Of a stretch of DNA of 64,000 bases, positions 23,967 through 44,038 are shown piece by piece. The notes below the pieces were generated by a model. The model had not been told where the DNA came from and made no database searches. It saw only the letters and a program-made list of their open reading frames with translations. Every line of letters starts with the position of its first letter. The first letter of the stretch is position 1. Where the stretch lies: sequence record OK254197.1; one strand, 5' to 3'. Made by a program: the position numbers and the translations under genes. The stretch is from Escherichia phage PNJ1902.

Positions 23967-24496
23967 TAACGGCATTATATGCAGTTGGGCCGAATGGGGA
24001 GTTCGGCCTCCGAGGTAAACTCCCCTGGGGTTCCTTCAAAGAAGAACTAGATGCTTTCTACTCTCAACTGGACGTGTTGAACCCAGATAACATCATCATT
24101 GGTGCGGGCACTTATTTAGCACTTCCAGAAGTTGTTCGGCAACGTATGATTGGAGAATCTGACCTCTTTATTCGTGCGGATCGTCCTCTGCCTGATGATA
24201 TTAAACATGGTATTTACACTCCAATTTCTAAGATTGGGGATACATTACCTACATTCTTAAAAGATCAACAGACAGTGGTTTTAGGTGGCGCAACATTATT
24301 GTACGAAATGTATATTCATGGACATATTGAAAGTGCTTTTGTATCCACAATCTTTAGTAATCAAAAACTAGAGGCAGATGTACATCTGGATAATACGATT
24401 CTAGATTACAACTATGAATCTACTCGTTTAGTTTACGCAACTGGCGCAAACAGTGATAACAGCCTGCGATTTGTACAGGAATTGGTTACTTATTAA
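23963..24496 (+). CDS. Dihydrofolate reductase
   Basis: 177 aa; overlaps nrdB stop; sits between nrdB and thymidylate synthase. Confidence 0.65.
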
Positions 24497-25350
24497 TGGA
24501 TCAGTATATCGAAGTTGGAAAACGTATTCTATCAGAGGGTCAGTGGGTAACGAATCCTAGAACAGGGGTTCGTTGCCTAACTATTATTGACGCAGATTTT
24601 ACTTTTAACGTAGGTGCAGGTGAATTCCCCCTTATTACTACCCGTAAGGCGTTTGCAAAACAAGCAATAATGGAAATGATTGGGTATCTACGTGGATATG
24701 ACTCAGCAGCACAATTCCGCGCTATTGGTGTTAACACATGGAATGCTAATGCAAATGAAAACTTAGCTTGGCTAGACAATCCATACCGTAAAGGTGAGGA
24801 TGATATGGGGCGAGTCTATGGTGTTCAAGGACGTCAGTGGACTAATTCCGATGGTCTTATGTTTGACCAACTAGCCAAGATTTATCATAATCTGAAGAAG
24901 GGCATTGATGATCGTGGGGAAATTCTAACATTCTGGAATCCGGGAGAGTTCTCAAAGGGTTGCTTACGTCCATGTATGCACACTCATCAGTTCTCTATTT
25001 TGGGAGATACATTATACCTGAACTCTTTCCAGAGATCTAATGACTTCCTGTTAGGCCAAGTATTTAACATGGTTCAGTGCTATACGCTTCTAGCATTAAT
25101 GGCACAGATTACAGGCCTTAAACCAGGAATTGCACGCCAGAAGATTATCAATCTTCATATCTATGAGGATCAGTATAATGTTTTGATGGAGCATAAGCAA
25201 TTCGATCGTGAACCTTTTGCACATCCTACTCTAGAAATCAATCCAAATATCCGAACTCTGGAGGATGTATTGACCTGGGTAAGTAAGGATGATTTTACTG
25301 TCCGTGGTTACGAACACCACCCTGCTATTGCATATCCATTCACTGTGTAA
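24496..25350 (+). CDS. Thymidylate synthase
   Basis: 284 aa; active-site region CLRPCMHT... Confidence 0.75.
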
Positions 25351-26277: not shown

Positions 26278-26562
26278 ATGCGGATTTATAACTCAAATTC
26301 ATTAGGATTTAAGCCATTGAGAAAACGTGCACAATCACCTCGTCAAATAAGAAAGGCTAATATTGGTGAGCCAGAAACACGTCTTCCACCTCCTCCAGAG
26401 CAACGTTTAGTTTATCTGGACGAAGAGTTAGCTGAACGCGAAAGAAAAGCTCAAGAAGAGATTGAGCGTAAGAAAATGTGTACTGCTCCAGCCTACTCCA
26501 AAGGAGCTTATCAGTATATCTATACAGCCGAGGAGGCTAAAGATGCGGGGCGTAAAAAATGA
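26278..26562 (+). CDS. Hypothetical protein
   Basis: 94 aa ORF. Confidence 0.5.
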   Translation: MRIYNSNSLGFKPLRKRAQSPRQIRKANIGEPETRLPPPPEQRLVYLDEELAERERKAQEEIERKKMCTAPAYSKGAYQYIYTAEEAKDAGRKK

Positions 26563-27008
26563 AGATTACCGAATTTAAAGGTACTTATAGTTTCTTATCT
26601 AACTTTTATTTATCACCAATTACTTTCGAATACCTAAACGAGATATGGCATGCTGATACTGTAGAACATGCTTTTCAGGCTATGAAATCCGACCAAAAAG
26701 ATGATGTAGCTCATGTACTGCGCTCCCTAAATGCAGGAGTTGCCAAACGTAGAGGACGTAAATTAACTCTACGCTCTGACTGGGATAAGGTAAAAGATGA
26801 TGTAATGCTAGAGCTTTTACGGTTAAAGTTTGCAATCCCTGATTTGAGAGACAAACTGTTAGCAACAAAAAATGCAACTTTGATCGAAGGAAATACCTGG
26901 GGAGATACATATTGGGGTGTTTGCCGAGGCATCGGGGATAATACTCTAGGTGTTCTTTTGATGCAGGTAAGGTCTGAAATTAAAAGAAGCTTACAGTTAA
27001 TAAATTAA
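26559..27008 (+). CDS. NADAR/YbiA-like domain protein
   Basis: 149 aa; LSNFY...HAFQAMK motifs typical of the YbiA/NADAR family. Confidence 0.5.
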   Translation: MKITEFKGTYSFLSNFYLSPITFEYLNEIWHADTVEHAFQAMKSDQKDDVAHVLRSLNAGVAKRRGRKLTLRSDWDKVKDDVMLELLRLKFAIPDLRDKLLATKNATLIEGNTWGDTYWGVCRGIGDNTLGVLLMQVRSEIKRSLQLIN

Positions 27009-28170: not shown

Positions 28171-28872
28171 ATGAAAGTAAAACCATTTGGTATGCTAGAT
28201 ATTGAATCTCTAGGAACTCCAGGAGATTGTGGTACTACTCATATCGCAATGCCTTCTTTCGCTTTTGTGGCTATGCATGGAATTGATAAAGACCCTGATC
28301 TAGTATTTGTTACTTTGGATGTGCAAGATCAACTTAATTCTGGTGCCAAAGTTACAGCATCTACTCTAGCATTCTGGATGGATCAAGCTAAAAATAGTCC
28401 GTCTGCTATCCACATTATGGAAGCTATGAAGGAACGTAATCCAAAACTGATTGCCTTCCAAAATGGTAAACATCATTGCACTAATAAATTAGGCTCAAAC
28501 TATGCTGCCTTCTCTATGGCTCAAAATATTATGGAGTTGGCTCTAGGCGAAAATGCTTTGTATTATGGCAATGGCCCAGAGTTTGATATGACTATCTACT
28601 CTGCAAATACGTTCCATGCTGGAACCAATGAAGAGGTAGTTCCGTGGAAATTCTGGAATTTGGGCAATGTTCGATCTCTTCGTAATCTCTGGATGCAAGC
28701 TGGATACAGTTATAAAGCTCTAGAGACCGAAGGTATTAGCTGGGCAATAGCTAAAATGGAGAAGATGGACACTATTCGTTATGGGATCTATCCGGTTAAG
28801 CACGACCCAGCATTCGATGCCTTAGTTGAGAGCTATTGTGTTGCAGCTATGATCGAAAAAATGAAAATTTGA
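28171..28872 (+). CDS. Putative DEDDh-type 3'-5' exonuclease
   Basis: 233 aa; Exo I-like LDIES and Exo III-like HDPAFDAL motifs. Confidence 0.45.
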   Translation: MKVKPFGMLDIESLGTPGDCGTTHIAMPSFAFVAMHGIDKDPDLVFVTLDVQDQLNSGAKVTASTLAFWMDQAKNSPSAIHIMEAMKERNPKLIAFQNGKHHCTNKLGSNYAAFSMAQNIMELALGENALYYGNGPEFDMTIYSANTFHAGTNEEVVPWKFWNLGNVRSLRNLWMQAGYSYKALETEGISWAIAKMEKMDTIRYGIYPVKHDPAFDALVESYCVAAMIEKMKI

Positions 28873-29178: not shown

Positions 29179-29817
29179 ATGACTACTCGTATTTCTAAAA
29201 CTCGTGCTCTGGCAACTATCAAATCTCTGGAAGCTAAAATCCGTAAAGCTACTGAACAGCAGCTTCTGATCGCTGTTGGTGAAGGTAAGGATAAAAACCA
29301 GGTTGTAGTTGGCGCTGCAATCGAAGTAGCCGATCTGTCTACTCGTATTAAGACTGATTTCCAGTCTCTGCTGGATATGATGTCTAAGCGTGATAGTATC
29401 AAATCTGCTCTGATTAAGAGCAATGCAGAAACAATCGTTGAGATTGGTTCTCGTAAGATGACTGTTGCGGAAGCAATTGAAGCTAAGCGTTCTATGGAGC
29501 TTAAAGCTCAGCTGCTGGCTAACATGCGTAAGCAGTTCCATGCCGCTACGGTTAAGTTTAATACGCAGAAAGCACAGTTTGACGCTAAATATGAGCGTTT
29601 GCAGGATAGCATGGCTACCCGCGATAAGAAAACTTCCGAAGATGAAGTTAAAATGCAGCTCAACCTGCTGGAACTCAAGAATACTCCATTCTTGATTGAT
29701 CCGCTGGAACTGGAGAAGCTGATTAAGCAGCATGACGAGGAATACCAGGACTTTGCAACAAATGTTGACTTTGTTCTGTCCGAGTCTAACGCCTCTACCT
29801 TCATTGAAGTAGAGTAA
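29179..29817 (+). CDS. Coiled-coil hypothetical protein
   Basis: 212 aa; overlapping reverse-strand ORFs judged spurious. Confidence 0.55.
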   Translation: MTTRISKTRALATIKSLEAKIRKATEQQLLIAVGEGKDKNQVVVGAAIEVADLSTRIKTDFQSLLDMMSKRDSIKSALIKSNAETIVEIGSRKMTVAEAIEAKRSMELKAQLLANMRKQFHAATVKFNTQKAQFDAKYERLQDSMATRDKKTSEDEVKMQLNLLELKNTPFLIDPLELEKLIKQHDEEYQDFATNVDFVLSESNASTFIEVE

Positions 29818-30200
29818 TAATTTAAAAGCTAGTAAATCGGTAGACGAAAGCCTAAGCATCTTACCTCGCAGCAGCGGTTGAAATACGAGGTTAAATAAGA
29901 CCGCTGACCATACTATAAAGTATAATCTATTGGAGATTATGTTTATTACACCAGCCTTTTAAGCTGACACGTAAGAACAAAGCGTCGTTGATATTACCGA
30001 CACAACTTCAAAGATCAACATTTAAGTATGAAAGCTGAAAAGTTTAAAGAACTCAAACTTCTAAACTTCTAAAGCTAAAAGATGCAAAGTATTCGTTGAT
30101 GATTCAAACCCTAGATCAAAGGTACATGGCTCATAAGATATGGCCTGTGGCGCCTCTAGGCTGTTTATCGGTTTACTAGTTTCACAATTTAAAAATGTAT

Positions 30201-30229
30201 TTGCTAATCTACTAAATTATATGTATAAT
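30201..30229 (+). promoter_or_regulatory. sigma70 promoter (T5 early type)
   Basis: TTGCTA-17-TATAAT. Confidence 0.65.
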
Positions 30230-30259
30230 ATATTTTTAAATTGATGAAACGAGGCTATT

Positions 30260-30577
30260 ATGACTTTTCATATTTTGATTGATGATGTGCGTAATCTTCA
30301 CGGAATGGACATTATCATTCGAACCCCAGAAGCCGCTGTAGAGTTTCTGAATAAAACTGATACCACAGGCCATTTTGTTTATATGGATAATGACTTGGCT
30401 GTAGATGGTATGGAAGGTTATCAAATTCTTCGTTTACTCTTAGAATTTGGGCAGAGACCAAAGAAAGTGGTACTAGTAACCTCGAACCCAGTAGCTAAGC
30501 AAAATATGCGTAATGATTTGCTTGACTTAGGGTATAAAGAAAATCCCAATCGTGTTGAATATGATTGGCAGGAGTAA
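30260..30577 (+). CDS. Stand-alone receiver (CheY-like) domain protein
   Basis: 105 aa; DD near N-terminus, central Asp, VVLVTS and downstream Lys consistent with receiver fold. Confidence 0.4.
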   Translation: MTFHILIDDVRNLHGMDIIIRTPEAAVEFLNKTDTTGHFVYMDNDLAVDGMEGYQILRLLLEFGQRPKKVVLVTSNPVAKQNMRNDLLDLGYKENPNRVEYDWQE

Positions 30578-30582: not shown

Positions 30583-31032
30583 ATGAAGGCAGCTTTGCTT
30601 TTAGTAGCTGCCCTTACCTTCAGCTTTAGTAGTCAGGCATCGCACGATGCAAAAGAAATAGATTGCATTGCTAAAAATATCTATTTCGAGAGTCGTGGTG
30701 AGGGCATAAAGGGAATGACGGCGATTGCACATGTTACTAAAAACCGTGTAAACTCCGGTAAATTCCCAGATTCCTACTGTAAAGTAGTATATCAGTCTAA
30801 CCAGTTCTCTTGGGTATCTAAGAGACCAAAAGTTGATAAAACCGATGAGGCTTGGCAAACAGCCAAGAATTTAGCTAGAGTGATATACTACGTTGATTTA
30901 CCACAAGATCCTACACATGGAGCACTATACTTCCATAGTGGTAAAGATAAACCTTATTGGACAAAGAAGTTTAAGAAAACAACTAAGATTAAGGGACATA
31001 CGTTTTATAAACCTGTTGTCACTAAAACTTAA
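30583..31032 (+). CDS. Secreted SleB-like cell-wall hydrolase
   Basis: ~149 aa from ATG 30583; signal peptide then NIYFESRGEG...AHV..NR motif. Confidence 0.6.
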   Translation: MKAALLLVAALTFSFSSQASHDAKEIDCIAKNIYFESRGEGIKGMTAIAHVTKNRVNSGKFPDSYCKVVYQSNQFSWVSKRPKVDKTDEAWQTAKNLARVIYYVDLPQDPTHGALYFHSGKDKPYWTKKFKKTTKIKGHTFYKPVVTKT

Positions 31033-31100: not shown

Positions 31101-31271
31101 ATGAAATCAGTTGTAATTATTGGTGTTAACACTCGCGGTATTCGTACTACGAAAACTGTTAAAACATCTAACGTGGCTGAAATTACTACTAACCCTAAAA
31201 AGTTTGATTTCGCCAAAGTCTCGGCAGTTATGACAGAACAATCTTTTAACCAAGCGTTAGGAATGAAATAA
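31101..31271 (+). CDS. Small hypothetical protein
   Basis: 56 aa ORF with RBS GAGGAAG, below 60-aa table cutoff. Confidence 0.4.
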   Translation: MKSVVIIGVNTRGIRTTKTVKTSNVAEITTNPKKFDFAKVSAVMTEQSFNQALGMK

Positions 31272-31714
31272 TGGAAGAGAATATTTTAGATGTTTTGCGT
31301 AGAGCTTTGCAGGATTCTAAGTTTAATGGTTCTGATAAAGAAGTCGCTAAAAGCTACCAGACCATAATCGGGGATCTTCAGCGTATTGATAAAGATTTCA
31401 TCACTTCTGAACAATTTGTGTCTTATCTCAAAGCTCAACTAAAAAGCATTAACCAGATGAAAGCTAAACTTCATGGTCAAGATCTTGATAGTTATAGCTT
31501 GCAGTCTGCTCAGTATGAGTACATTCTAAATAAATGGTTGCAGGAGTATCTGCCTCCTCAGTTATCTGATACTGAGATTCGTAAATACTTTGCAGAATTA
31601 GTTAAGCTAAACCCTGGAATTACAAAGGGTATGCTGATGAAAGCGATTAAGGAAGAATTTCCTGGGCGTTATGATGGCGGTACTGCTGCTCAGATTGCTG
31701 GCGAATTTAATTAA
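31271..31714 (+). CDS. GatB/YqeY-domain protein
   Basis: 147 aa; C-terminal ...MLMKAIKEEFPGRYDGGTAAQIAGEF typical of YqeY family. Confidence 0.5.
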   Translation: MEENILDVLRRALQDSKFNGSDKEVAKSYQTIIGDLQRIDKDFITSEQFVSYLKAQLKSINQMKAKLHGQDLDSYSLQSAQYEYILNKWLQEYLPPQLSDTEIRKYFAELVKLNPGITKGMLMKAIKEEFPGRYDGGTAAQIAGEFN

Positions 31715-31973: not shown

Positions 31974-32047
31974 TGCCGTCCTAGTATAATTGGTATTATC
32001 AAGCCGTAACTGGTGGAAGATGTAGGTTCGAATCCTACGGTCGGTAA
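31974..32047 (+). ncRNA. tRNA-like element (degenerate)
   Basis: GTAGGTTCGAATCCTAC T-arm and 6/7 bp acceptor pairing, tRNA-sized, but no clean D or anticodon arm. Confidence 0.25.
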
Positions 32048-32548
32048 GAACTGGATAACTGGTGCTTTTAATGTAAAAGCTTCCGAGGTTAGTTGCGCAC
32101 TGCCTAAACCACGCGGTAGTTGGTTCCAGACTAGCCAACCAGTCTGCTGAATAGTTTTATTACGATTTAACTATGTCCAGACTAAAGAAGAACTTTAGAA
32201 GGTATTCTAGGATAGTGAAGTTCTTTCTCCATATCGGAGTAGTTTTTCAAGCTATCCACAAAGTGGGAAATGCTGACATGAGAGATGTCACTAATGGTGC
32301 ACAATAGCACAGGTAATTCGCGATAATTCCTGTTGAGTAGCAGCAAAAGGCGGGAAGTCATGACCCCAAGCCTAACCGAGTCCTCAATATACCGCAGGAC
32401 ATAACCACTAAGTCACCCTGACTTAAACTGGAAAATAATAGACGTTACCGTATTTTGTCTTGAAATACTTAATGAGTGAGACTTATGACTCTCCCGGTAT
32501 CGTCTGTATTTTTAAGAGTTTTTACGAGAGTTCTTAAAAATACTTAAA

Positions 32549-32623
32549 CGGGGTGTAGTCTAAGGGAGAGGCAGGAGTCTTCTAAATTCCTTTATGCAGG
32601 TTCGAATCCTGTCACCTCGGCCA
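32549..32623 (+). tRNA. tRNA-Arg (anticodon UCU), tentative
   Basis: Hand fold: acceptor CGGGGTG/CACCTCG, anticodon stem GGAGT/ATTCC loop CTTCTAA, T-arm GCAGG-TTCGAAT-CCTGT, encoded CCA. Confidence 0.45.
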
Positions 32624-32657
32624 ATTTTATTAACTGTAACTAAAACAAAGGAAATAT

Positions 32658-33605
32658 ATGTTTGCTACTAAAAACACTAAAGAACTGACTTATGAGCAAA
32701 AATTAATGCGTAATATCAAACGTTGGGGTATTGGGGCTGCAGTTGGTTTGGTAGGTTTAGTTCTGGCTCTTAACTCTTACACTGTTGTTCAAGACGGTAC
32801 TGTTAAAACCCAGACTTTCCTGGGTAAAGTTGACCCTAGCCCAGTATTACCCGGCTTTCATATTGTAAATCCTTTTGCTTCTTTCGATACTTTTAGTACT
32901 AAAGATATTGCTCTAAAATTAGATAAACTTCAGGTTCCTAGTCAGGATAAGTTTAAATCCACTGTTGACCTGACTGTTATGTTGCAGTTTGATGGTTCTA
33001 AGGCACCGATTAACCGTATTAATGCAGGTACTCAGGATCAAGCATTAGACAAATATGTAACTGAAAAATTACTGTCTACTATTCGTGAGTTTGGTAAGTC
33101 TGTACCTAAAGCACAAGATTTATTTGATGCTAAAATTCAGGCTCAATTGCAAACCGCAATTCAACAGGAAGTTGAAGAGTATGCACGCCCATATGGTTAC
33201 ACAGTTAAGCAGGTGTTTCTTCAGGATATTACTTTGCCACCGGTAATCATGGAACAGGTACAGAATACCAAAGTTCGTGAAGAGCAAGTTAACGCTGCGA
33301 AAGCTGAACTTGCCCGCGTTGAACAGGAAGCACAGCAAAAAGTTAAACAAGCAGAAGCAGATCGTGAAGCTCGCAACAACCAAGCTATTGCTAATGAACG
33401 TGACGCAGATGCTAAACTGTACGCAGCTAAGAAAGAAGCTGAAGCTAACGCCGCACTGCAACGTACCATTACTCCTGAGATGATTCGTTGGAAACAACTG
33501 GAAGTTGAAATGATTCGTGCTCAGAAGTATCAAGGTGGTGTACCTCAGACTGTAGTTGGCACTGGCTATGATGGTCAAATGATTATGGATATGCGTAACA
33601 AGTAA
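32658..33605 (+). CDS. SPFH/band-7 (prohibitin-like) membrane protein
   Basis: 315 aa; N-terminal TM helix, SPFH-like core, C-terminal Ala/Gln/Glu coiled coil. Confidence 0.55.
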   Translation: MFATKNTKELTYEQKLMRNIKRWGIGAAVGLVGLVLALNSYTVVQDGTVKTQTFLGKVDPSPVLPGFHIVNPFASFDTFSTKDIALKLDKLQVPSQDKFKSTVDLTVMLQFDGSKAPINRINAGTQDQALDKYVTEKLLSTIREFGKSVPKAQDLFDAKIQAQLQTAIQQEVEEYARPYGYTVKQVFLQDITLPPVIMEQVQNTKVREEQVNAAKAELARVEQEAQQKVKQAEADREARNNQAIANERDADAKLYAAKKEAEANAALQRTITPEMIRWKQLEVEMIRAQKYQGGVPQTVVGTGYDGQMIMDMRNK

Positions 33606-33630
33606 TAGTTACACGTAATCTTCGAACTAA

Positions 33631-33662
33631 GCCCGCGTTTTCTCCGAGAGCGCGGGCTTTTC
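33631..33662 (+). terminator. Intrinsic terminator
   Basis: GCCCGCG...CGCGGGC hairpin + TTTT. Confidence 0.7.
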
Positions 33663-33683
33663 TGTATTTAAGGCAAAAGAAAA

Positions 33684-33712
33684 AGCCCCTAAGTCTTTCG
33701 ACTAGGGGCTTT
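33684..33712. terminator. Bidirectional hairpin terminator candidate
   Basis: AGCCCCTAAG...CTAGGGGCT flanked by A-run upstream and T downstream; lies between convergent genes. Confidence 0.5.
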
Positions 33713-33929
33713 ACTGTTTGGTTCTTTAGAACCATATACTCTTGTTACAGCAACCACCCATACGGGAGGCCAATCTTGACTGAAAATCTACTCTAGGGGG
33801 CAGGATAAGAGTAGGCTTAAAGGCAAACGGATTGAACGCCGGTATTTGCGTAAACATTGCTGGAGAGCAACAACGTGCTACAGGCATTGGGCAGCACGAA
33901 ACAGATTTTCTGCAACACATAATTCCTCC

Positions 33930-34346
33930 TTAGGAGTTATTACCACCATTTTGAGCTTTTGCAACTTGGCTTTGGCAGAAGCTATTAAACTTACCCATAA
34001 GTGATACAAGCTGCTTCCCATCCTCTGTCTTTGCGAAGTCTTCGAAAAGGGCTAGTACTGCCTGTCCTTCCGCAGAAACCTGCGGTTGTTGGGTTTGTTG
34101 CTGAACTTGCTGCTGCGGCATCTGTTGCTGCATTTGTTGGGGCATTTGCGACTGCCCGCTCATTTGCTGCATCATTTGCATAGGACTCACACTTCCAGGG
34201 TTTTGCTGGAGTTGTTGCTGCATCTGTTGCGCTTCTGCTAAACGCTGTTGCAATTGTTGTAAGTAGGGGTTATCCAGACCCGGAATGGGCTGCTGGGAGC
34301 CCATACTTTGATTAAGTCCGTTATTTACAAAACCATATTTACTCAT
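33930..34346 (-). CDS. Gln-rich low-complexity protein
   Basis: 138 aa; long Q/M-rich repeats. Confidence 0.45.
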   Translation of the reverse strand: MSKYGFVNNGLNQSMGSQQPIPGLDNPYLQQLQQRLAEAQQMQQQLQQNPGSVSPMQMMQQMSGQSQMPQQMQQQMPQQQVQQQTQQPQVSAEGQAVLALFEDFAKTEDGKQLVSLMGKFNSFCQSQVAKAQNGGNNS

Positions 34347-34367
34347 AATGGGCTCCTCCCCTTAATA

Positions 34368-35354
34368 TTAAGCCGGCAGTTTAGCCTGCAGACCAGCCAG
34401 AGTCTGAGTGATAGCACCAAGACTTAAAGCGATTTGATTAATTACCTGACCGTTAGCACCACTACCCGCAGCGATTGCTTCACGTAGGCGACATGCGTCT
34501 AACTCGTCCTGGATACGTGCAGTAGTTACACCAGCGATCGCAGTCTGAAGTTCACAGCAACATTCAGCGATCTGACGTTCCAGAGAGTTCTGGTTAGCAC
34601 ACATCTGAGCCTGAACAGCGGCAAACTGGTTATTAGTTTGTAAAGTCTGCTGGAAAGCGATCTGTGCAGAATCAAACTTATCTTGTGCACGAGCTATCTG
34701 GTTAGCTGCGAAAGATTGATCAATCTGGCGAGAAAGATCGAACTGACCCTGAATAACGTTGCGAGTTTCCTGGCAGATCTGATTAGACAGATTAGCACCT
34801 GTACCATAGATCGTAGTTAGTACAGACTGAGTATCACGGCTCTGGTTTTGGGATGTCTGGCTAAAACCATTGTTAACTGCGCTTAAAACAGCCCCAGTAC
34901 CCTGGTTAGCTTCTGTACGAGTAGTGTTAATAGCTGCTAGAATACTAGCGGTATCTTGATTCTGAAGTACTGCATCAACTGCGCTACCATCACCAACTAC
35001 ACCACGTCCACCGAATCCACCGAAACCACCGAATCCGCCTGTTAATAGAGCACCGATTAGGATAGCTCCGAATAGTCCCATACCTTCACCACCGAAAGCA
35101 CCTGCGTTTGCTGGGTAACCACCTAGTAGGCCAGGGAAGCCACTAGTGAATACGTTTACTGGTTCTTGCATTTTATGTTTTCCATGTTTATGACAATGTT
35201 CATCATCGTCATCTTCTTCATCATCATGTTCACGATGTTTTTCTTCGTAGGCTCTGACCTTCTCCCACTTTTTCTTATCTGATTCCTCGTGACGGTGCAG
35301 TTCTGCTGCAACGCTAGCGACGGTCTCAGGACTCTTAGCTACTTCTTCTGTCAT
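34368..35354 (-). CDS. Gly-rich membrane-associated hypothetical protein
   Basis: 328 aa; acidic/His-rich N-terminus, GGFGGFGGFGG glycine-zipper segment, Q/A-rich coiled region. Confidence 0.5.
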   Translation of the reverse strand: MTEEVAKSPETVASVAAELHRHEESDKKKWEKVRAYEEKHREHDDEEDDDDEHCHKHGKHKMQEPVNVFTSGFPGLLGGYPANAGAFGGEGMGLFGAILIGALLTGGFGGFGGFGGRGVVGDGSAVDAVLQNQDTASILAAINTTRTEANQGTGAVLSAVNNGFSQTSQNQSRDTQSVLTTIYGTGANLSNQICQETRNVIQGQFDLSRQIDQSFAANQIARAQDKFDSAQIAFQQTLQTNNQFAAVQAQMCANQNSLERQIAECCCELQTAIAGVTTARIQDELDACRLREAIAAGSGANGQVINQIALSLGAITQTLAGLQAKLPA

Positions 35355-35419
35355 TTTTTAACACCTCCTAGTATATAGAAAATGTGTGTCTCTTTGATCA
35401 CTCATCCATAACATATACT

Positions 35420-35447
35420 TTACACTACCCCAACAAAAATGTCAAGG
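35420..35447 (-). promoter_or_regulatory. Putative sigma70 promoter
   Basis: RC: TTGACA-17-TAAAGT. Confidence 0.35.
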
Positions 35448-35561
35448 GGTCTTTAAAAATTGCCCCCGGATTTTTAGTGGGGTCACAAATTTTGGTCCTC
35501 ACCACTTATCTGCTACCCTTAAGTGCCCTATGATTTTCCTCTAAAAAGTTAAAAATTTTGA

Positions 35562-35590
35562 TTGCTTGAATGCTAAATTCTCTGTATAAT
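35562..35590 (+). promoter_or_regulatory. sigma70 promoter (T5 early type)
   Basis: TTGCTT-17-TATAAT + ATAAATTTGAGAGAGG leader. Confidence 0.7.
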
Positions 35591-35620
35591 ATATCTATAA
35601 ATTTGAGAGAGGAATAAGAT

Positions 35621-36139
35621 ATGAATGTTGATGAGCTAACACAGCACCTCTTATCTAGAGGATTTGATACAGATAAATATCATTGCTGGTTAAGCCCGGA
35701 AGGGTGGCTAACAGTCCCATTGTATGACTTCTCTGGGATGTTGCGGGGCTATCAGACGTATAATCCTTCTGCTCCAAAAGGGCATGGTAAGTGCCCCTTT
35801 GAGGCTAAATATTTTACCTACTCCACTACACAGTGTGTATGGGGACTAGAAACTCTCAATGGAGATGAAAAAGTAGTATTGATTGCTGAATCTGTATTTA
35901 AGGCAGTTGCATTACATAATGCTGGTTATCCAGCCCTAGCAATGTTGGGTTCTACCCCAGGAAAAGCGTTATTAAAGCAACTGAAATTACTACCTTTTAA
36001 ATTGGTAGCTGTCGGGGATAATGATCCTGCGGGTGAAAAATTTGCTAGAAAATTGAACGGCTTTGTTTCTCCTGTAGATGTGGATGAGATGTCTACCGAA
36101 AACTTGAAAAATTTTCTTGCTATGAAGCTAAATTTCTAA
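35621..36139 (+). CDS. Toprim-domain protein
   Basis: 172 aa; conserved Glu (LIAES) and DxD (GDNDPAG). Confidence 0.5.
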   Translation: MNVDELTQHLLSRGFDTDKYHCWLSPEGWLTVPLYDFSGMLRGYQTYNPSAPKGHGKCPFEAKYFTYSTTQCVWGLETLNGDEKVVLIAESVFKAVALHNAGYPALAMLGSTPGKALLKQLKLLPFKLVAVGDNDPAGEKFARKLNGFVSPVDVDEMSTENLKNFLAMKLNF

Positions 36140-36160
36140 TATAATATATCTTATAAATTC

Positions 36161-36249
36161 GGAAGAATAGCATAACGGTATTGCAGCAGATTGCTAATCT
36201 GTCGGTTTGAAATATAGCCTTGTGGGTTCGATTCCCACTTCTTCCGCCA
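36161..36249 (+). tRNA. tRNA-Ser (anticodon GCU), class II
   Basis: Hand fold: acceptor GGAAGAA/TTCTTCC, loop TTGCTAA, long variable arm, T-arm GTGGG-TTCGATT-CCCAC, CCA encoded. Confidence 0.55.
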
Positions 36250-36255
36250 GATTTT

Positions 36256-36333
36256 GGTTCTCAAGCTCATATGGTATGAGCACCCGGCTCATAACCGGAA
36301 GGTACGTAGGTTCGAATCCTCGGGGAGCCACCA
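36256..36333 (+). tRNA. tRNA with CAU anticodon (Met/Ile2), tentative
   Basis: Acceptor GGTTCTC/GGGAGCC (2 GU), loop CTCATAA, TTCGAAT T-loop with weak 3-bp T-stem. Confidence 0.45.
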
Positions 36334-36351
36334 ATTAAATAGAGGTCACAA

Positions 36352-36540
36352 ATGGATCTATATATAGTTTATGTTGTGTTTATTCAAGATAGAGAATACC
36401 CGGATGAATATAAAAAAGGATATAGGCTAGCCAGAGCTACCTCTGAAGCCCAAGCTATGGATAAAGTGGCAGATTATATGATTACGGTAGAAAACGTACA
36501 CTATATAGACTACCTCGAAGCCTCAAAAGTAATTGACTAA
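36352..36540 (+). CDS. Hypothetical protein
   Basis: 62 aa ORF. Confidence 0.45.
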   Translation: MDLYIVYVVFIQDREYPDEYKKGYRLARATSEAQAMDKVADYMITVENVHYIDYLEASKVID

Positions 36541-36549
36541 GGAGACTAT

Positions 36550-36735
36550 ATGTCCAAGTTTCAAGAACTCAAGCAAGAGCTAGAAGAATGTGCCTGCCCT
36601 GAGTGTAGGGGAATTGGTGAAAGTTCTGATGCAGAAGCAGGAGATACTTTTTGCAATATCTGGGTTTGCCCAAATTGCAGTGGTACAGGTATTAATCCTA
36701 ACTGTGGTATTTCCCTAGATATTGAACGAGGATAA
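36550..36735 (+). CDS. Cys-rich small protein
   Basis: 61 aa; CxxC...CxxC pattern. Confidence 0.45.
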   Translation: MSKFQELKQELEECACPECRGIGESSDAEAGDTFCNIWVCPNCSGTGINPNCGISLDIERG

Positions 36736-36836
36736 TACCTATGAAACTAAAAGATTATTATATTGGTTGGTTTGTGGGACTAGTAGTAGGATTTTCACTA
36801 GGCTATAATATGTATCAACTAATAAACTGATTACAC

Positions 36837-36913
36837 GGGGGTGTAATCGAATTGGCATAGGTACTGGACTTAAAATTCAGGTTTTGTGGGTTCGAATCCC
36901 ACCACCCCTACCA
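36837..36913 (+). tRNA. tRNA with apparent UAA anticodon but class I (short variable arm) architecture
   Basis: Acceptor GGGGGTG/CACCCCT, anticodon stem CTGGA/TTCAG loop CTTAAAA, 5-nt variable loop, T-arm GTGGG-TTCGAAT-CCCAC, CCA encoded. Confidence 0.45.
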
Positions 36914-37088
36914 AATTAAGGAAATAAGATGTATAGACATCCACCTCCGCCAACACGTCGTTCTAGGGAAGTTATCCTCATGGAATTGACTAAAAACTTC
37001 AAGGCAACTCTTGAAGACAGAGATCTAGGCACGGATGAAGACATTGATTTTATTTGTAGACTATTAAAGATGAAACTGGAGAAAAAAC

Positions 37089-37295
37089 ATGGCTAATCCT
37101 GAAATTACAGCACAACGTTTCATGCTTAAAGGCATGATTGCTGAGGCAGGTATAACTCAAGAGGTTGCAGATTTTCATAAGCAATTTCTTGACATTATAA
37201 CTCTAGCTAAAGAGACTGGAGAAAAAGAGCATGGAGCGGCAATTATGGCTATATCTCTTATTAGTCTAGACTTGGCTGAAGAATCTGGAATTTAG
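37089..37295 (+). CDS. Hypothetical protein
   Basis: 68 aa ORF. Confidence 0.45.
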   Translation: MANPEITAQRFMLKGMIAEAGITQEVADFHKQFLDIITLAKETGEKEHGAAIMAISLISLDLAEESGI

Positions 37296-37325
37296 CTCCT
37301 CCAAACAGAATTTTTAAAAATGTAC

Positions 37326-37355
37326 TTGCCTTTTGCTTTAAATTTCTGATATAAT
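37326..37355 (+). promoter_or_regulatory. sigma70 promoter
   Basis: TTGCCT-18-TATAAT. Confidence 0.6.
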
Positions 37356-37385
37356 AGTTATATAAATTGATGAAGGAGTTAATGA

Positions 37386-37661
37386 ATGCAAAATCGTGTT
37401 ATAGCAGCTGGTATTGAAAGTGCAATCTGTAAATCCTGGGAAGGCTGGGAAGGTGAGATTGAATGGCTTTATTTCTACGATGTAGAACTTCTGCCGGAAA
37501 TTAAAGCTAAATGTATTGAAGCTGGCATGGCTCCAGATGCAAAAGCTGATATTGATATTTCAATGTCTGAACTTAAAGGTCGTGTAATTACTGTTAGTGA
37601 TGAGGGCGAAGAAGTTTTCGAACTTCCGTTCTCCTTAACTGTCGCTCCTAAGTTCGACTAA
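37386..37661 (+). CDS. Hypothetical protein
   Basis: 91 aa ORF with RBS AAGGAG. Confidence 0.5.
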   Translation: MQNRVIAAGIESAICKSWEGWEGEIEWLYFYDVELLPEIKAKCIEAGMAPDAKADIDISMSELKGRVITVSDEGEEVFELPFSLTVAPKFD

Positions 37662-37692
37662 CTAATACAGCACTGAGCAAGTTCTTTAAAAT

Positions 37693-37726
37693 TTGACTTG
37701 CTCAGTGCCTTAAAACTTGGTATAAT
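37693..37726 (+). promoter_or_regulatory. sigma70 promoter driving tRNA cluster
   Basis: TTGACT/TTGCTC-17-TATAAT. Confidence 0.65.
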
Positions 37727-37793
37727 AGTTATCTAATTTGGAAACATATTTAAAAGTGTTTAAATTAGAATTTTTTTGAATACTTCTAAATAT

Positions 37794-37881
37794 GGGGAAA
37801 TATTCTGTAAGTGGTAGCAGAGCTGACTGTAAATCAGTTGTCATTGCGACTCGGGTGGTTCGACTCCATCTTTCCCCACCA
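37794..37881 (+). tRNA. tRNA-Tyr (anticodon GUA), class II
   Basis: Acceptor GGGGAAA/TTTCCCC, loop CTGTAAA, ~15-nt variable arm, T-loop TTCGACT, CCA. Confidence 0.6.
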
Positions 37882-37887
37882 ATTTAA

Positions 37888-37964
37888 GTCCTGTTAGACA
37901 AACTGGTAAAGTCACTACCCTTTCAAGGTAGGATTTGCGGGTTCGATCCCCGCACAGGACGCCA
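37888..37964 (+). tRNA. tRNA-Glu (anticodon UUC)
   Basis: Acceptor GTCCTGT/ACAGGAC, anticodon stem CTACC/GGTAG loop CTTTCAA, T-arm GCGGG-TTCGATC-CCCGC, CCA. Confidence 0.65.
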
Positions 37965-37972
37965 ATTCCTGC

Positions 37973-38049
37973 ATTCCTAGAGTGTTACTGGACAGCATGT
38001 CGGTCTCCAAAACCGTACGGTCTAGGTTCGAGTCCTAGTAGGTTTGCCA
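37973..38049 (+). tRNA. tRNA-Trp (anticodon CCA), acceptor stem with two U-U mismatches
   Basis: Anticodon arm CGGTCTCCAAAACCG as in E. coli tRNA-Trp; T-arm CTAGG-TTCGAGT-CCTAG; acceptor ATTCCTA/TAGGTTT. Confidence 0.5.
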
Positions 38050-38055
38050 AAATTT

Positions 38056-38130
38056 GCACCTTTAGCTGAGATGGATTAGCGCTTGCCTGAAGAGCTTGAG
38101 AGGTTCGTTCGATACGAACAGGGTGCACCA
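38056..38130 (+). tRNA. tRNA-Phe (anticodon GAA), tentative
   Basis: Acceptor GCACCTT/AGGGTGC, loop CTGAAGA at canonical position, anticodon stem with two U-U mismatches, T-arm GTTCG-TTCGATA-CGAAC. Confidence 0.45.
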
Positions 38131-38147
38131 ATTTGAAGGAGCTGCTT

Positions 38148-38420
38148 ATGCATCCTGAAAACTTCTTTATTTACTGCGCGGATAAGTCGCTGAAACGTAG
38201 AATTAACAAAGTCTATCATTATCGTGCTAGTCAACAGCCTTATGTATACGCTTTTGACGGTGATCACATTCCATTAGAACAATTATCTTGTGATTACATG
38301 ATATTGAAGAACTTTGACGAGACAAAGATCTCAAGCGTTCACAATCGACAGAATCCATTAACGTGGAAATATAAGAAGAAAAAGAAAGGCATCAAATTCT
38401 TAAAAAATGTAGTTGCTTAG
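38148..38420 (+). CDS. Hypothetical protein
   Basis: ~90 aa from ATG 38148 with RBS AAGGAG (table start 38133 is TTG). Confidence 0.5.
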   Translation: MHPENFFIYCADKSLKRRINKVYHYRASQQPYVYAFDGDHIPLEQLSCDYMILKNFDETKISSVHNRQNPLTWKYKKKKKGIKFLKNVVA

Positions 38421-38441
38421 TTTCCAAAAGTTCTGTATAAT
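38413..38441 (+). promoter_or_regulatory. sigma70 promoter
   Basis: TTGCTT-17-TATAAT. Confidence 0.65.
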
Positions 38442-38489
38442 AATTACATAAATTGAACTGGAGAAGCAACATGATAGAATAAGATAAAT

Positions 38490-38565
38490 CGACCGTTGGC
38501 TGAATGGCTTAGGCGAAGGATTGCAAATCCTTTTTATGTGAGTTCAAATCTCATGCGGTCGTCCA
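38490..38565 (+). tRNA. tRNA-Cys (anticodon GCA)
   Basis: Acceptor CGACCGT/GCGGTCG, anticodon stem AAGGA/TCCTT loop TTGCAAA, T-loop TTCAAAT, CCA. Confidence 0.6.
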
Positions 38566-38717
38566 ATTTGCTGAAAGAATTGTTTTAACAATTCAGGCAC
38601 GCGTAGGAACACTGTCTCCGTAATTGAAAGATGAGGCACGGTTTGGAGAGGTATGCCGCTACACGCTACGGTGCTAACTCCGTCTAGGTGAAAATCCTAG
38701 TCAGCAATATAAATTTA

Positions 38718-38800
38718 GGGTCGTTAGCCAAGCGGTTTGGCGGTGGACTGTTAATCCATGTCGAAAGACAACGTAGGTTCGAATCCTACACGGCCCGCCA
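38718..38800 (+). tRNA. tRNA with class II architecture (13-nt variable arm, G73) but apparent GUU anticodon
   Basis: Acceptor GGGTCGT/ACGGCCC, 3-bp D stem, anticodon stem GTGGA/TCCAT loop CTGTTAA, variable hairpin GTC-GAAA-GAC, T-arm GTAGG-TTCGAAT-CCTAC. Confidence 0.4.
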
Positions 38801-38902
38801 AATTCTGTGTAGAGTTAAGTAAACCGGTAGCCAACCAGCTATCATTGCTGACATCGAATTCAGCCACAGATACCATTTTCATTAATAACTGAGGAAACAA
38901 GC

Positions 38903-39088
38903 ATGTCCAAGAATGTAATTGCGCAGCTAGAAGTTCATCGTGATAGCACTATCAACAATATTGAAGTTGAGAAGAAATACATCGAAGAACTTAAACATGA
39001 TATACTAGTAAGTCTTAATCGTCTTAATGTACGAAAAGAGTTTCTTAAGGAACTTAATGCAGCTATTGAAAAACTCAAAGCTGAGTAA
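38903..39088 (+). CDS. Hypothetical protein
   Basis: 61 aa ORF with RBS GAGGAAACAAGC. Confidence 0.45.
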   Translation: MSKNVIAQLEVHRDSTINNIEVEKKYIEELKHDILVSLNRLNVRKEFLKELNAAIEKLKAE

Positions 39089-39097
39089 ATGAATTAT

Positions 39098-39174
39098 GCG
39101 ACAGGGGCTGGCTTGGTAATGGTACTCCCCTGTCACGGGAGAGAATGTGGGTTCGAATCCCATCGGTCGCGCCA
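39098..39174 (+). tRNA. tRNA-Asp (anticodon GUC)
   Basis: Anticodon stem CTCCC/GGGAG loop CTGTCAC, T-arm GTGGG-TTCGAAT-CCCAT, CCA. Confidence 0.6.
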
Positions 39175-39200
39175 AATTAAACTAGCACGAGAAATATGCT

Positions 39201-39548
39201 ATGATTAATGCTAAAGAAGAGTTGTTACTTGCCCTAAAGAATACTAATTCTGAAGTTAAGTGTATTAAGATAGAATTCGGTTATTATGGAGACAAAGAAG
39301 TTTGGGTATTGCCCGTAGGTTATACAGAAAAAGATATTGAAGATTTTCTAAATAATCTAGACTTTAAATATGACTCGGGTTTCGGTGGACAATTGCTTTA
39401 TGGTAACGTATGGTTTACTGATGGAACTTGGTTAGAACGTGGTGAATATGATGGTTCTGAATGGTGGGAGTATAAGACTACACCAGCAATCCCTGAGGAA
39501 TGCCGAACAATTAATGGTGAAGTAGATAATACTTTACGGTTAAACTAA
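39201..39548 (+). CDS. Hypothetical protein
   Basis: 115 aa ORF. Confidence 0.55.
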   Translation: MINAKEELLLALKNTNSEVKCIKIEFGYYGDKEVWVLPVGYTEKDIEDFLNNLDFKYDSGFGGQLLYGNVWFTDGTWLERGEYDGSEWWEYKTTPAIPEECRTINGEVDNTLRLN

Positions 39549-39553
39549 TAAAA

Positions 39554-39660
39554 TTTCAGTGCAGAACACGGAGCTAGCAATTCGGAAGTGCTGACTCATG
39601 ATAAGCTGCCTATGTACTTGCGAAGCGGTCGTGTCCAAGACTCGGACTCTTGCACTGAAA
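39554..39660 (+). ncRNA. Hairpin-closed structured element (candidate small RNA)
   Basis: 10-bp terminal inverted repeat TTTCAGTGCA/TGCACTGAAA enclosing ~87 nt, no ORF. Confidence 0.3.
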
Positions 39661-39670
39661 ACAATCAAAC

Positions 39671-39791
39671 ATTCTAGCGTGGTTGATGGGGAAACCAGCT
39701 TGGCTAGGGCAGAAGCTCGTTCGATTCGAGTGAAAGAATGGTTCTCGTAAGTCCGCACAAGTGATAACAGGTTCGAGTCCTGTCTAGAATG
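39671..39791 (+). ncRNA. tRNA-like cloverleaf with ~48-nt insertion in the anticodon loop
   Basis: Perfect 7-bp acceptor ATTCTAG/CTAGAAT, D stem TGGT/ACCA, anticodon stem GCTTG/CAAGT enclosing 55 nt, T-arm ACAGG-TTCGAGT-CCTGT. Confidence 0.4.
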
Positions 39792-39806
39792 ACACTATAA
39801 AGTTTA

Positions 39807-39920
39807 CTTATTATGTAGGTTCCGATAGATCGGCGGGTCTATTCTGGCATTTAAGAGAGGTCTCGCAAACTTCTTTGTCAGCCGTGGGGTTGGTAGCCTC
39901 CAGGTGGCCTACACAATAAG
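39807..39920 (+). ncRNA. Hairpin-closed structured element (candidate small RNA)
   Basis: 13-bp inverted repeat CTTATTATGTAGG/CCTACACAATAAG (12/13 match) enclosing ~88 nt with internal CCGATAGATCGG hairpin. Confidence 0.3.
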
Positions 39921-39940
39921 TAAATTTATTAAAAATTCAT

Positions 39941-39969
39941 TTGCTATTCTGCTTAATTCTCTGTATAAT
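39941..39969 (+). promoter_or_regulatory. sigma70 promoter (T5 early type)
   Basis: TTGCTA-17-TATAAT. Confidence 0.7.
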
Positions 39970-40001
39970 ATATTTTATAAAGTGAAGAGAAGGAAAGCAA
40001 A

Positions 40002-40160
40002 ATGAAACACAAGATAGCTCAAGTTTTTATGGCATTATGGTGTATGCCAGTAGCTATAACAGCATTTAATCTAGATACTTTTACTATAGAAGAAAAATGT
40101 ATCGGGTTAGTTAGCGGCTTTAGTATGCTGGGCTTATCCTTGTTGTGGTTGAAGAAATAA
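40002..40160 (+). CDS. Small hydrophobic protein
   Basis: 52 aa ORF with RBS AGGAAAG, hydrophobic core; below table cutoff. Confidence 0.4.
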   Translation: MKHKIAQVFMALWCMPVAITAFNLDTFTIEEKCIGLVSGFSMLGLSLLWLKK

Positions 40161-40164
40161 TATT

Positions 40165-40242
40165 CTCCGTGTAGCTCAGTTTGGCCAGAGCGTTTCGTTT
40201 GGGGCGATAGGGTCGGGGGTTCAAATCCTCCCACGGAGACCA
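40165..40242 (+). tRNA. tRNA-Pro (anticodon UGG)
   Basis: Acceptor CTCCGTG/CACGGAG, D arm GCTC...GAGC, loop TTTGGGG, T-loop TTCAAAT, CCA. Confidence 0.55.
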
Positions 40243-40248
40243 AACAAT

Positions 40249-40326
40249 TGCGGGTTAGATCTCTGGTAGAGATCGCTAGTCTCATAAGCTAGAAAGAGGT
40301 AGGTTCGATTCCTGCACCCGCTTCCA
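40249..40326 (+). tRNA. tRNA with CAU anticodon and unpaired 1:72 (initiator-like), tentative
   Basis: Acceptor TGCGGGT/ACCCGCT with U1-U72 mismatch, D stem GATC/GATC, anticodon stem CTAGT/GCTAG loop CTCATAA, CCA. Confidence 0.5.
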
Positions 40327-40346
40327 TTTTAATAGAGGATTTCGAA

Positions 40347-40514
40347 ATGAAAGTATTTCGATTAGTAGTAAGTGACAAACGTTTAGGTAAGAATACATCA
40401 AAATCCTTAATCGCTCATTACGGTAAAAATTGGGATGAAGTAATGGCAGAGTTTAATACTAATCACCCTTACTTGAAAGTTCACTCTATTAAAGAAGTAT
40501 ACAATGGTTACTAA
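40347..40514 (+). CDS. Small hypothetical protein
   Basis: 55 aa ORF with RBS GAGGA; below table cutoff. Confidence 0.35.
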   Translation: MKVFRLVVSDKRLGKNTSKSLIAHYGKNWDEVMAEFNTNHPYLKVHSIKEVYNGY

Positions 40515-40515
40515 T

Positions 40516-40594
40516 AGATCGCTAGCTCAATAGGTTTAGTAGCATCCGACTTTTAATCGGAAGGTTCTGGGTTCGAGTCCCAGGCGATCTACCA
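40516..40594 (+). tRNA. tRNA-Lys (anticodon UUU)
   Basis: Acceptor AGATCGC/GCGATCT, anticodon stem TCCGA/TCGGA loop CTTTTAA, T-arm CTGGG-TTCGAGT-CCCAG, CCA. Confidence 0.6.
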
Positions 40595-40612
40595 ATTTCA
40601 AGAAAAACGCAG

Positions 40613-40641
40613 TTGCTTGATGCTTAATTTCTTGTTATAAT
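40613..40641 (+). promoter_or_regulatory. sigma70 promoter
   Basis: TTGCTT-17-TATAAT; followed by ~230 nt ORF-free transcribed spacer. Confidence 0.65.
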
Positions 40642-40879
40642 ATTTATATAAATTGATGAGGAGAGATCCTCATCATAGTTCACTAAGGTATTAGCTCGAC
40701 CTAGGACTGGCTGCCAAAAAGCACGATCCCTTCTACTTGGGAGAAGTTCTAGATTAGTCCACTAGATTCAGCGGCAACTGAATAGTGTATCGGGTTTGCG
40801 AGATGACGCAGTTCCTTCCGCTCGAAGCGAAGGTGCTGTAGTTACGCCGAGCTAATAGCCTTAGTAAACTAAAGATTTT

Positions 40880-40954
40880 GGGCGGTTAGTTTATCTGGGA
40901 AAATACCTGACTTGCACTCAGGAGTGAGGAGTTCGACTCTCCTACTGTCCACCA
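40880..40954 (+). tRNA. tRNA-Ala (anticodon UGC)
   Basis: Anticodon stem CCTGA/TCAGG loop CTTGCAC, T-arm AGGAG-TTCGACT-CTCCT, CCA. Confidence 0.6.
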
Positions 40955-40972
40955 AATTAAAGGGTATGTAGT

Positions 40973-44037: not shown

Positions 44038-44038
44038 T

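Follow-up and report, generated by a model that had tools for sequence, protein, structure and literature searches.

The cREC family was defined in 2021 by comparative genomics (Iyer, Anantharaman, Krishnan, Burroughs & Aravind, PMC7824862) and was restated in 2022 (PMC9503650); its Pfam model, PF20274, bears the name cREC_REC, for "cyclic-phosphate processing receiver domain." In the parts of the two papers that deal with the family, its members are portrayed as divergent receivers that never occur with histidine kinases; certain phages and bacteria carry them in linkage with RNA ligases, sirtuins, Nudix proteins, and other NAD+/ADP-ribose enzymes, and Nudix fusions are also reported (PMC7824862, PMC9503650). 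Because of these links to RNA ligases and NAD+/ADP-ribose enzymes, the describers inferred that cREC proteins process cyclic phosphates, the predicted activity being the opening of 2',3'-cyclic phosphates on RNA or of the cyclic phosphate of an ADP-ribose derivative. In the same parts, the site is regarded as metal-independent (PMC7824862, PMC9503650), and the 2022 paper terms the family "experimentally uncharacterized" (PMC9503650). The literature searched yielded no study of the cRec domain later than 2022, no paper naming PF20274, and none on the function or essentiality of T5.084, the member carried by phage T5. No cREC member was found in the PDB, whether by sequence or by fold; a profile match to 4osz, a TAL-effector repeat protein, was an artefact of low-complexity repeats.

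The window analysed here is a 64,000-nucleotide stretch of Escherichia phage PNJ1902 (OK254197.1). An initial annotation, made from the sequence alone, had taken one 105-aa ORF for a stand-alone CheY-like receiver in an early phage operon. Its product was compared with the described cREC family and with canonical receivers, and the surroundings of the gene were examined both in T5-like phages and across the family.

Results

The gene and its family

The window belongs to a T5-like phage, with ∼99% identity over the 3 kb tested to several Salmonella and Escherichia Tequintavirus genomes. The ORF was borne out exactly as first drawn, with 105 codons and a TAA stop at 30575-30577 (Table 1), and it is a real gene, above chance. 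Its T5 ortholog, T5.084 (96% identical), lies in the early region of that genome, with nucleotide-metabolism genes on one side and the tRNA cluster on the other, and the T5 record has a promoter annotated upstream of T5.084 at the position homologous to the promoter-like site in the window. Since the window is T5-like and the gene falls within the T5 early region, with a promoter-like site present, the earlier description of the surroundings as an early phage operon was reasonable.

The protein matched PF20274 (56.8 bits; cutoff, 27; E = 3.8e-15) over residues 4-87, corresponding to profile positions 2-86 of 88, and that it belongs to cREC is all but certain. The cREC_REC label was found precomputed on nearly all homologs, and some GenBank and UniRef entries identical or nearly identical to the T5-type protein already carry the cREC name. 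A match to PHROG 1479, whose function is unknown, was also obtained. Both the family and its T5-type member are already catalogued, so that there is nothing categorically new at the locus.

Table 1. Features of the cREC gene and its surroundings in the PNJ1902 window
Feature	Position	Strand	Evidence and remarks
NADAR-domain gene	26559..27008	+	Pfam PF08719, 79 bits; 3.2 kb upstream of cREC
Rv2179c-like 3'-5' exoribonuclease domain gene (T5.087 homolog)	28171..28872	+	Pfam PF16473, 33.8 bits; 1.4 kb upstream
Promoter-like sigma-70-type site, TTGCTA-17-TATAAT	30201..30229	+	Near-consensus; precedes the cREC gene
Shine-Dalgarno GAGG	30251..30254	+	Read off the sequence; 5 nt before the cREC ATG
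cREC-family gene	30260..30577	+	105 aa; T5.084 ortholog; encodes a minimal receiver fold
D8-D9-V10-R11 codons	30281..30292	+	Acidic pair ending β1, then family-specific Arg
R21 codon	30320..30322	+	Family-specific Arg right after β2 (AF2 model)
D43-N44-D45 codons	30386..30394	+	DxD motif ending β3; D45 aligns with CheY N59 ("D+2")
T74-S75-N76 codons	30479..30487	+	Ends β4; N76 aligns with CheY E89 ("T+2")
SleB-like cell-wall hydrolase gene (Hydrolase_2)	30583..31032	+	Pfam PF07486, 89.5 bits; N-terminal hydrophobic leader
tRNA array	31975..44287	+	ARAGORN and Rfam; same strand as cREC; begins 1.4-2 kb downstream
tRNA-like element	31975..32046	+	Rfam tRNA match, 35.5 bits; Rfam only
tRNA-Arg	32549..32623	+	ARAGORN; first of 21 tRNA genes

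Fold and conserved residues

An AlphaFold2 (AF2) model built on a 34-sequence alignment reached a pLDDT of 93.4 and a pTM of 0.85, and its secondary structure ran β1, loop, β2, α2, β3, α3, β4, α4, β5 hairpin. A 10-residue loop (residues 8-17) replaces α1 in this model, and the chain ends in a C-terminal β hairpin, with α5 missing. Receivers dock the DHp domains of kinases and Hpt domains through their α1/α5 surfaces, α1 being the main docking surface for histidine kinases. A receiver-related Rossmannoid fold is present in the T5-type protein, in agreement with Foldseek, and the best structural matches of the model were receiver domains. In the sequence comparisons, Pfam Response_reg (PF00072) scored 12.5 bits, below its cutoff of 30.2 (E = 0.17), the best PDB sequence matches to CheY had E values of 0.3-1, and hhalign against E. 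coli CheY gave a weak alignment (probability, 18.5%; E = 0.0013) in which D43, T74, and Y92 of cREC were paired with D57, T87, and Y106 of CheY. The CheY-like character claimed in the initial annotation thus held for fold and pocket, on the combined evidence of AF2, Foldseek, and hhalign, and failed for the family, on the PF00072 score: cREC is receiver-like in fold and pocket, and the canonical receiver family is excluded.

Conservation was computed over 160 relatives, nonredundant at 70% identity. The acidic pocket residues and the Ser/Thr to which the initial annotation had pointed were recovered as strongly conserved positions (D8 and D9, 98% each; D43, 100%; T/S74, 98%), and the 105-aa protein is, as had been stated, without an output domain. 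The conserved Lys was not confirmed, because CheY K109 pairs with N95, a position occupied by Lys in only 15% of the relatives, and K93 is Lys in only 19%. A fold other than a receiver and a key Asp not conserved in homologs, the two outcomes initially held to speak against a receiver, were not what was found, since the model and its Foldseek matches were receiver-like and the central Asp, D43, was conserved in every relative.

Beyond the receiver set, family-specific conservation (93-99%) was observed at R11 (94%), R21 (98%), H/N44 (95%), D45 (99%), G53 (99%), P67 (95%), and N76 (98%), and G47 was conserved at 93%. R11 sits two residues past the acidic pair, and D43-H/N44-D45 belongs to a D-x-D-L-G motif that ends β3. 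In receivers, the residues at D+2 and T+2 flank the access route to the phosphoryl group and tune the rate of autodephosphorylation; in cREC, these residues are D45 and N76. In HAD phosphatases, an Asp two residues past the nucleophile is the acid/base catalyst, and Ridder & Dijkstra (in 1999) and Immormino et al. (in 2015) are said to have found the active sites of receivers and HAD enzymes alike. Judged from the alignment, the pattern of conserved residues in cREC looks like a catalytic centre.

Distribution and selection

Synteny and dN/dS were examined with 29 Demerecviridae (T5-like) loci retrieved around RNase H, and cREC was present in 28 of them. Pairwise dN/dS values between cREC and its diverged T5-like orthologs were 0.07-0.19, indicating strong purifying selection. 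cREC belongs to the core genome of T5-like phages and is strongly constrained there.

cREC was found in ∼490 phage records. For the wider family, an exhaustive profile search clustered at 50% identity gave 433 representatives, and a word-indexed profile search clustered at 90% identity gave at least 1576 clusters. The phages that carry the family have very different, unrelated hosts. Nearly all family members are stand-alone proteins of ∼100 residues; the longer ones had nothing beyond an HNH homing-endonuclease fusion or extensions without annotation, and domain fusions were therefore uninformative as a clue to function.

Neighbouring genes

In the window, cREC is followed downstream by the cell-wall hydrolase gene, then by a small gene of the DUF7616 family and one that is YqeY-like (the latter at 25 bits, below cutoff), and then by the tRNA array; a DUF7022 gene lies within 4 kb upstream. 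The hydrolase gene has its ATG 5 nt past the stop of cREC and its GGAG within the final cREC codons; because of this spacing and the overlapping ribosome-binding sequence, the two genes are probably cotranscribed. Their adjacency was seen in most T5-like loci, with a gap of ∼10 nt, but My1, a more distant phage, has lost it. The NADAR gene was missing at the corresponding place in T5 and SIA3lw and was found in only 6 of the 29 T5-like loci; therefore, it is a variable insertion and no fixed partner of cREC. No sirtuin, RNA ligase, Nudix, Macro, KptA, 2H, or HAD gene was found among the ∼40 window ORFs scanned. Two calcineurin-like phosphoesterases are encoded in the window, 23 kb from cREC.

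Across the family, 45 loci were collected and collapsed to 33 lineages at 55% identity, and Pfam was run on the 252 neighbour ORFs of these lineages that were 105 aa or longer and lay no more than 3.5 kb from cREC. HisKA and Hpt were absent from the called genes of eleven contigs and from the window ORFs scanned, as well as from the matches listed for the 252 neighbour ORFs of the 33 lineages; the sole HATPase_c match near cREC among those listed was gyrase B. Among the matches listed, no neighbour family occurred in more than 4 of the 33 lineages. The families recorded there were Metallophos (4 lineages), SF1 helicases (3 lineages), HD_4 and the Ribosomal_L12 C-terminal-like domain (2 lineages each), and the Rv2179c-like exoribonuclease and Hydrolase_2 (each in 2 lineages plus the PNJ1902 window). 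RNA-repair enzymes near cREC were singletons: RtcB ∼0.6 kb downstream of cREC in L035, a Thg1-like gene in L053, an RlaP-like gene in L016, and, once among the matches listed, a T4 Rnl1-type ligase. A PF09414 RNA ligase was also present on the P0262 contig together with cREC.

Proximity to tRNA genes

Closeness to tRNA genes was the clearest regularity in the surroundings of cREC. The distance between cREC and tRNA genes was compared with that of 80 thymidylate-synthase (ThyA) loci from the same collection, a single control family used without deduplication. Fisher P values were computed on contigs of at least 50 kb, which comprised 23 cREC lineages and 38 ThyA loci. A tRNA gene lay within 600 bp in 7/33 cREC lineages versus 0/80 ThyA loci (6/23 versus 0/38 on the long contigs; P = 1.8e-3), within 3 kb in 11/33 versus 1/80 (9/23 versus 1/38; P = 3.6e-4), and within 10 kb in 16/33 versus 6/80 (13/23 versus 6/38; P = 1.5e-3). 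All tRNAs found near cREC share its strand, and in lineages L011, L025, L048, L051, L054, and L058 the nearest was 25-240 bp away. In about half of the 33 lineages, a tRNA gene was more than 10 kb away or absent. RNase HI, tried as a second control family, was dropped, its retrieval consisting almost entirely of T5-like phages.

The proximity supports a role for cREC related to RNA or tRNA, and this support is suggestive only, because the comparison used one control family that was not deduplicated and because tRNA arrays may neighbour small early genes anyway; the two may colocalise for nonfunctional reasons. The describers' papers, in the parts that concern cREC, name RNA ligases and tRNA repair, and a positional association with tRNA arrays is absent from those parts (PMC7824862, PMC9503650).

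Discussion

The function of cREC is most likely enzymatic rather than signalling. The reading preferred here, whose likelihood is put a little short of an even chance, is that the T5-type protein, as a small phosphoesterase or phosphotransfer enzyme, works on the phosphate ends of RNA, with tRNA as the most plausible kind, or on related derivatives of nucleotides. The gene would be transcribed early from its own promoter, and the small phosphoryl-transfer or phosphoesterase enzyme that it encodes would probably depend on Mg2+, with the acidic cluster binding the metal. D43 would attack the phosphate ester or activate water on it, serving as nucleophile or as metal ligand; D45 would act as acid/base, like the Asp+2 of HAD phosphatases; N76 would position a water molecule; and R11 and R21 would bind phosphate, contributing the positive charge for which receivers rely on the Lys that is absent here. 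The preferred substrates would be RNA ends, notably those of tRNA, that carry 2',3'-cyclic or terminal phosphates, with ADP-ribose cyclic-phosphate by-products as an alternative, and the enzyme would help the tRNA supply of the phage to stay usable under host nuclease attack. The parts assigned to individual residues are proposed by analogy, and the metal dependence is drawn from receiver chemistry, whereas the describers consider the site metal-independent. Catalysis and substrate we likewise infer, the substrate class from genomic context.

A more specific version of this account is possible but doubtful. Under it, cREC would be a receiver fold without its kinase-docking helices that has become a phosphoesterase with a HAD-like DxD and that phages keep within or beside their tRNA arrays, where it heals tRNA ends damaged by host anticodon nucleases, as a core counter-defence function of T5-like phages, with the ends passed to host ligases (RtcB). 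Such end-healing would have to hand over to host enzymes, because the window ORFs scanned show no RNA ligase.

That cREC instead degrades nucleotide immune signals or NAD+/ADP-ribose derivatives (cADPR isomers/Thoeris, cyclic oligonucleotides, or ADPr-cyclic phosphate) as an anti-defence enzyme is rather unlikely. The describers, in the parts of their papers on the family, tie cREC to NAD+/ADPr-processing genes and Nudix fusions (PMC7824862, PMC9503650), and the NADAR gene upstream in the window would fit such a role. So would one Tad3 (Thoeris inhibitor) and one Acb3 (CBASS inhibitor) family gene, each found a single time in other lineages, at most 3.5 kb from cREC, and the APS-kinase gene and weak cytidylyltransferase-like gene near cREC in L012; counter-defence genes, moreover, are typically small, stand-alone, and expressed early, as is cREC. 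However, NADAR occurs in far fewer T5-like loci than cREC does (6/29 against 28/29), and Nudix, Macro, sirtuin, and 2H genes were not found among the window ORFs scanned. The core status of the gene and the purifying selection on it are also unlike the patchy occurrence of accessory anti-defence genes, and degradation of signals leaves the proximity to tRNA arrays unexplained.

Also unlikely is that cREC is a noncatalytic protein whose conserved pocket takes up a metal together with a phosphorylated ligand or protein, and that it serves as a regulator, adaptor, or sponge. Modulation of the adjacent secreted cell-wall hydrolase, or of an RNA-processing enzyme, is an example of what such a binder might do. 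The very small size of cREC and its stand-alone occurrence in nearly all of the at least 1576 clusters are consistent with binding, as are its close translational coupling to the Hydrolase_2 gene in T5-like phages and the presence of Hydrolase_2 near cREC in the two further lineages. On the other hand, the invariant set of DD, R, R, DxD, and T/S-x-N has the look of a catalytic centre, not of a surface for binding, and the hydrolase adjacency is lost in My1 and missing from most lineages. The hydrolase, furthermore, has an export leader and cREC has none, so that the two proteins would be found in different compartments.

Neither of the roles that the initial annotation had offered, interceptor of the host's two-component signalling and phosphate sink, was supported: the receiver-like fold and the conserved acidic pocket, phospho-acceptor Asp, Thr, and Tyr106-like aromatic would allow cREC to take phosphoryl groups away from histidine kinases of the host, from Hpt proteins, or from acetyl phosphate, or to disturb the signalling, and the invariant D45 and N76 at positions that tune autodephosphorylation would suit a fast sink, but the failure against PF00072, the lack in the AF2 model of α1 and α5, through which receivers dock kinases and Hpt proteins, and the poor conservation of the Lys required for phosphotransfer chemistry make these roles very improbable. 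Kinase and Hpt genes were also unseen among the called genes and the listed matches near the family members examined, on which the describers' accounts of the family agree (PMC7824862, PMC9503650), and since the family is spread over phages of very different, unrelated hosts, the targeting of one particular host kinase is less likely. Phosphorylation of cREC by small-molecule donors is possible.

Phage hijacking of two-component signalling would have been striking, and the evidence points elsewhere. What is added to the catalogued family is a clear separation of cREC from canonical receivers, a candidate catalytic role for individual residues, by analogy, at the DxD and T-x-N positions, the finding that the gene is core and strongly constrained in T5-like phages, and a quantified association with tRNA arrays. 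The matter concerns a family that is very widespread in phages, as the cluster counts and its core status in T5-like phages attest. Should cREC indeed process cyclic or terminal phosphates on tRNA or on nucleotide signals, it would be a new type of enzyme in phage counter-defence, and a receiver fold would serve as a catalyst rather than as a switch. The proximity to tRNA arrays narrows the search for the substrate, and T5, being genetically tractable, offers a good test system.

Comparison with known systems

With CheY and Spo0F receivers, cREC shares the flavodoxin-like parallel sheet and, at the same positions, the acidic pair, the phospho-acceptor Asp, the Thr/Ser, and the Tyr106-like aromatic. 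It differs from them in being without α1, α5, the conserved Lys, and a kinase partner and in having the extra invariant residues R11, R21, D45, and N76.

With HAD phosphatases, it has in common a nucleophile-type Asp followed two residues on by a second Asp, a Thr/Ser, and an acidic cluster of the Mg2+-binding type on a Rossmann-like sheet. In HAD enzymes, however, the DxD lies on the first strand and is accompanied by a cap or squiggle-flap, whereas that of cREC lies on β3. Membership in the HAD superfamily is out, cREC having a receiver topology and receivers as its structural matches; the likeness to HAD enzymes is one of mechanistic analogy.

2H phosphoesterases and T4 Pnkp-type end-healing enzymes open or remove the 2',3'-cyclic or terminal phosphates of cleaved tRNA, and religation becomes possible. 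The role proposed for cREC would be the same, and, like these enzymes, cREC is phage-encoded and, in its describers' account, tied to RNA ligases in certain phages and bacteria. Its fold and catalytic residues are unrelated to theirs, and the ligase partner is absent from the window ORFs scanned.

The closest system remains the described cREC family itself. The T5-type protein has the same DD, DxD, and (T/S)xN motifs and the same receiver-like fold, and it is likewise phage-borne, stand-alone, and without linkage to a histidine kinase. The T5-type locus differs in its company: the RNA ligase, sirtuin, Nudix, Macro, and 2H partners, of the kind to which the family owes its name, are absent from the ORFs scanned. 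In their place, cREC has as neighbours a secreted cell-wall hydrolase, a YqeY-like protein, and a tRNA array.

Divergent cREC alleles and cREC neighbors in other lineages

In two T5-like IMG/VR contigs (L161 and L166), cREC was found at the same location as in the window. It is only 51.5% identical to the window's cREC, whereas the genes flanking it have 93 to 97% identity. Judged from these identities, the divergent cREC at an unchanged location looks like an allelic replacement. Comparable cREC alleles, at ∼50%, were observed in the phages SelmaRatti and Kenya-K38. Within the window, no convincing ORF was found in the 440 bp upstream of the cREC gene (29818..30259), of which the promoter and Shine-Dalgarno sequence account for the last ∼60 bp only.

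In the lineage of the phage loci L003 and L004, a gene with the C-terminal domain of ribosomal protein L7/L12 overlaps the 3' end of cREC, and the same Pfam family gave two matches in the other batch of cREC-neighbor ORFs. Among the IMG/VR contigs L015 to L062, members of alignment A6, a single gene from each of the Tad3 (Thoeris inhibitor) and Acb3 (CBASS inhibitor) families was observed <3.5 kb from cREC.

Features of the window and of compared contigs, with coordinates and domain scores
Feature	Location	Strand	Remarks
Thymidylate synthase gene	24496..25350	+
NADAR-domain gene	26559..27008	+	Pfam, 79 bits
T5.087 homolog	28171..28872	+	Pfam, 33.8 bits (cutoff 27) for Rv2179c-like 3'-5' exoribonuclease domain
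T5.085 homolog	29179..29817		Neighbors T5.087 homolog; common label "tail fiber protein"
SleB-like cell-wall hydrolase	30583..31032	+	Early region; export leader
YqeY-like gene	31271..31714	+	Adjoins tRNA array; Pfam, 25.4 bits (just under cutoff 27)
tRNA-like element	31975..32046	+	Rfam, 35.5 bits (gathering score 29)
Glycine-radical domain protein, 122 aa	44562..44930	+	End of tRNA region; Pfam, 66 bits
Holin T and Peptidase_M15-type endolysin pair	50898..51964	+
Gene with L7/L12 C-terminal domain	L003 8306..8659; L004 6878..7231
cREC of L161	14341..14637
cREC of L166	14346..14642

Genes surrounding cREC in the window

The thymidylate synthase of the window is only 30% identical to the T5 and My1 enzymes, against ∼95 to 99% T5-like identity for the rest of the phage, which suggests that its thyA was swapped for one of a different type. 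The NADAR gene, inserted between the T5.090 and T5.089 homologs, was not found at the corresponding place in T5 or SIA3lw and was present in 6 of the 29 T5-like loci; it is therefore a variable accessory gene. Further downstream, homologs of T5.087 are labeled "putative metallopeptidase" in T5 and in many other records. The T5.085 homolog lies in the early region despite its usual label, and the Pfam search with it gave no match.

On the other side of cREC, the SleB-like hydrolase is additional to the pair of holin T and Peptidase_M15-type endolysin located elsewhere in the phage. The YqeY-like gene was found to fall into two allele classes across T5-like phages (92 to 100% versus 50 to 59% identity), and its GenBank labels are inconsistent, ranging over "tRNA amidotransferase," "recombination related exonuclease," and "GatB domain." The tRNA-like element, for which ARAGORN made no call, falls within the region homologous to T5 "RNAX," a stable RNA. 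The glycine-radical domain protein is similar to the stand-alone glycyl-radical "spare part" proteins.
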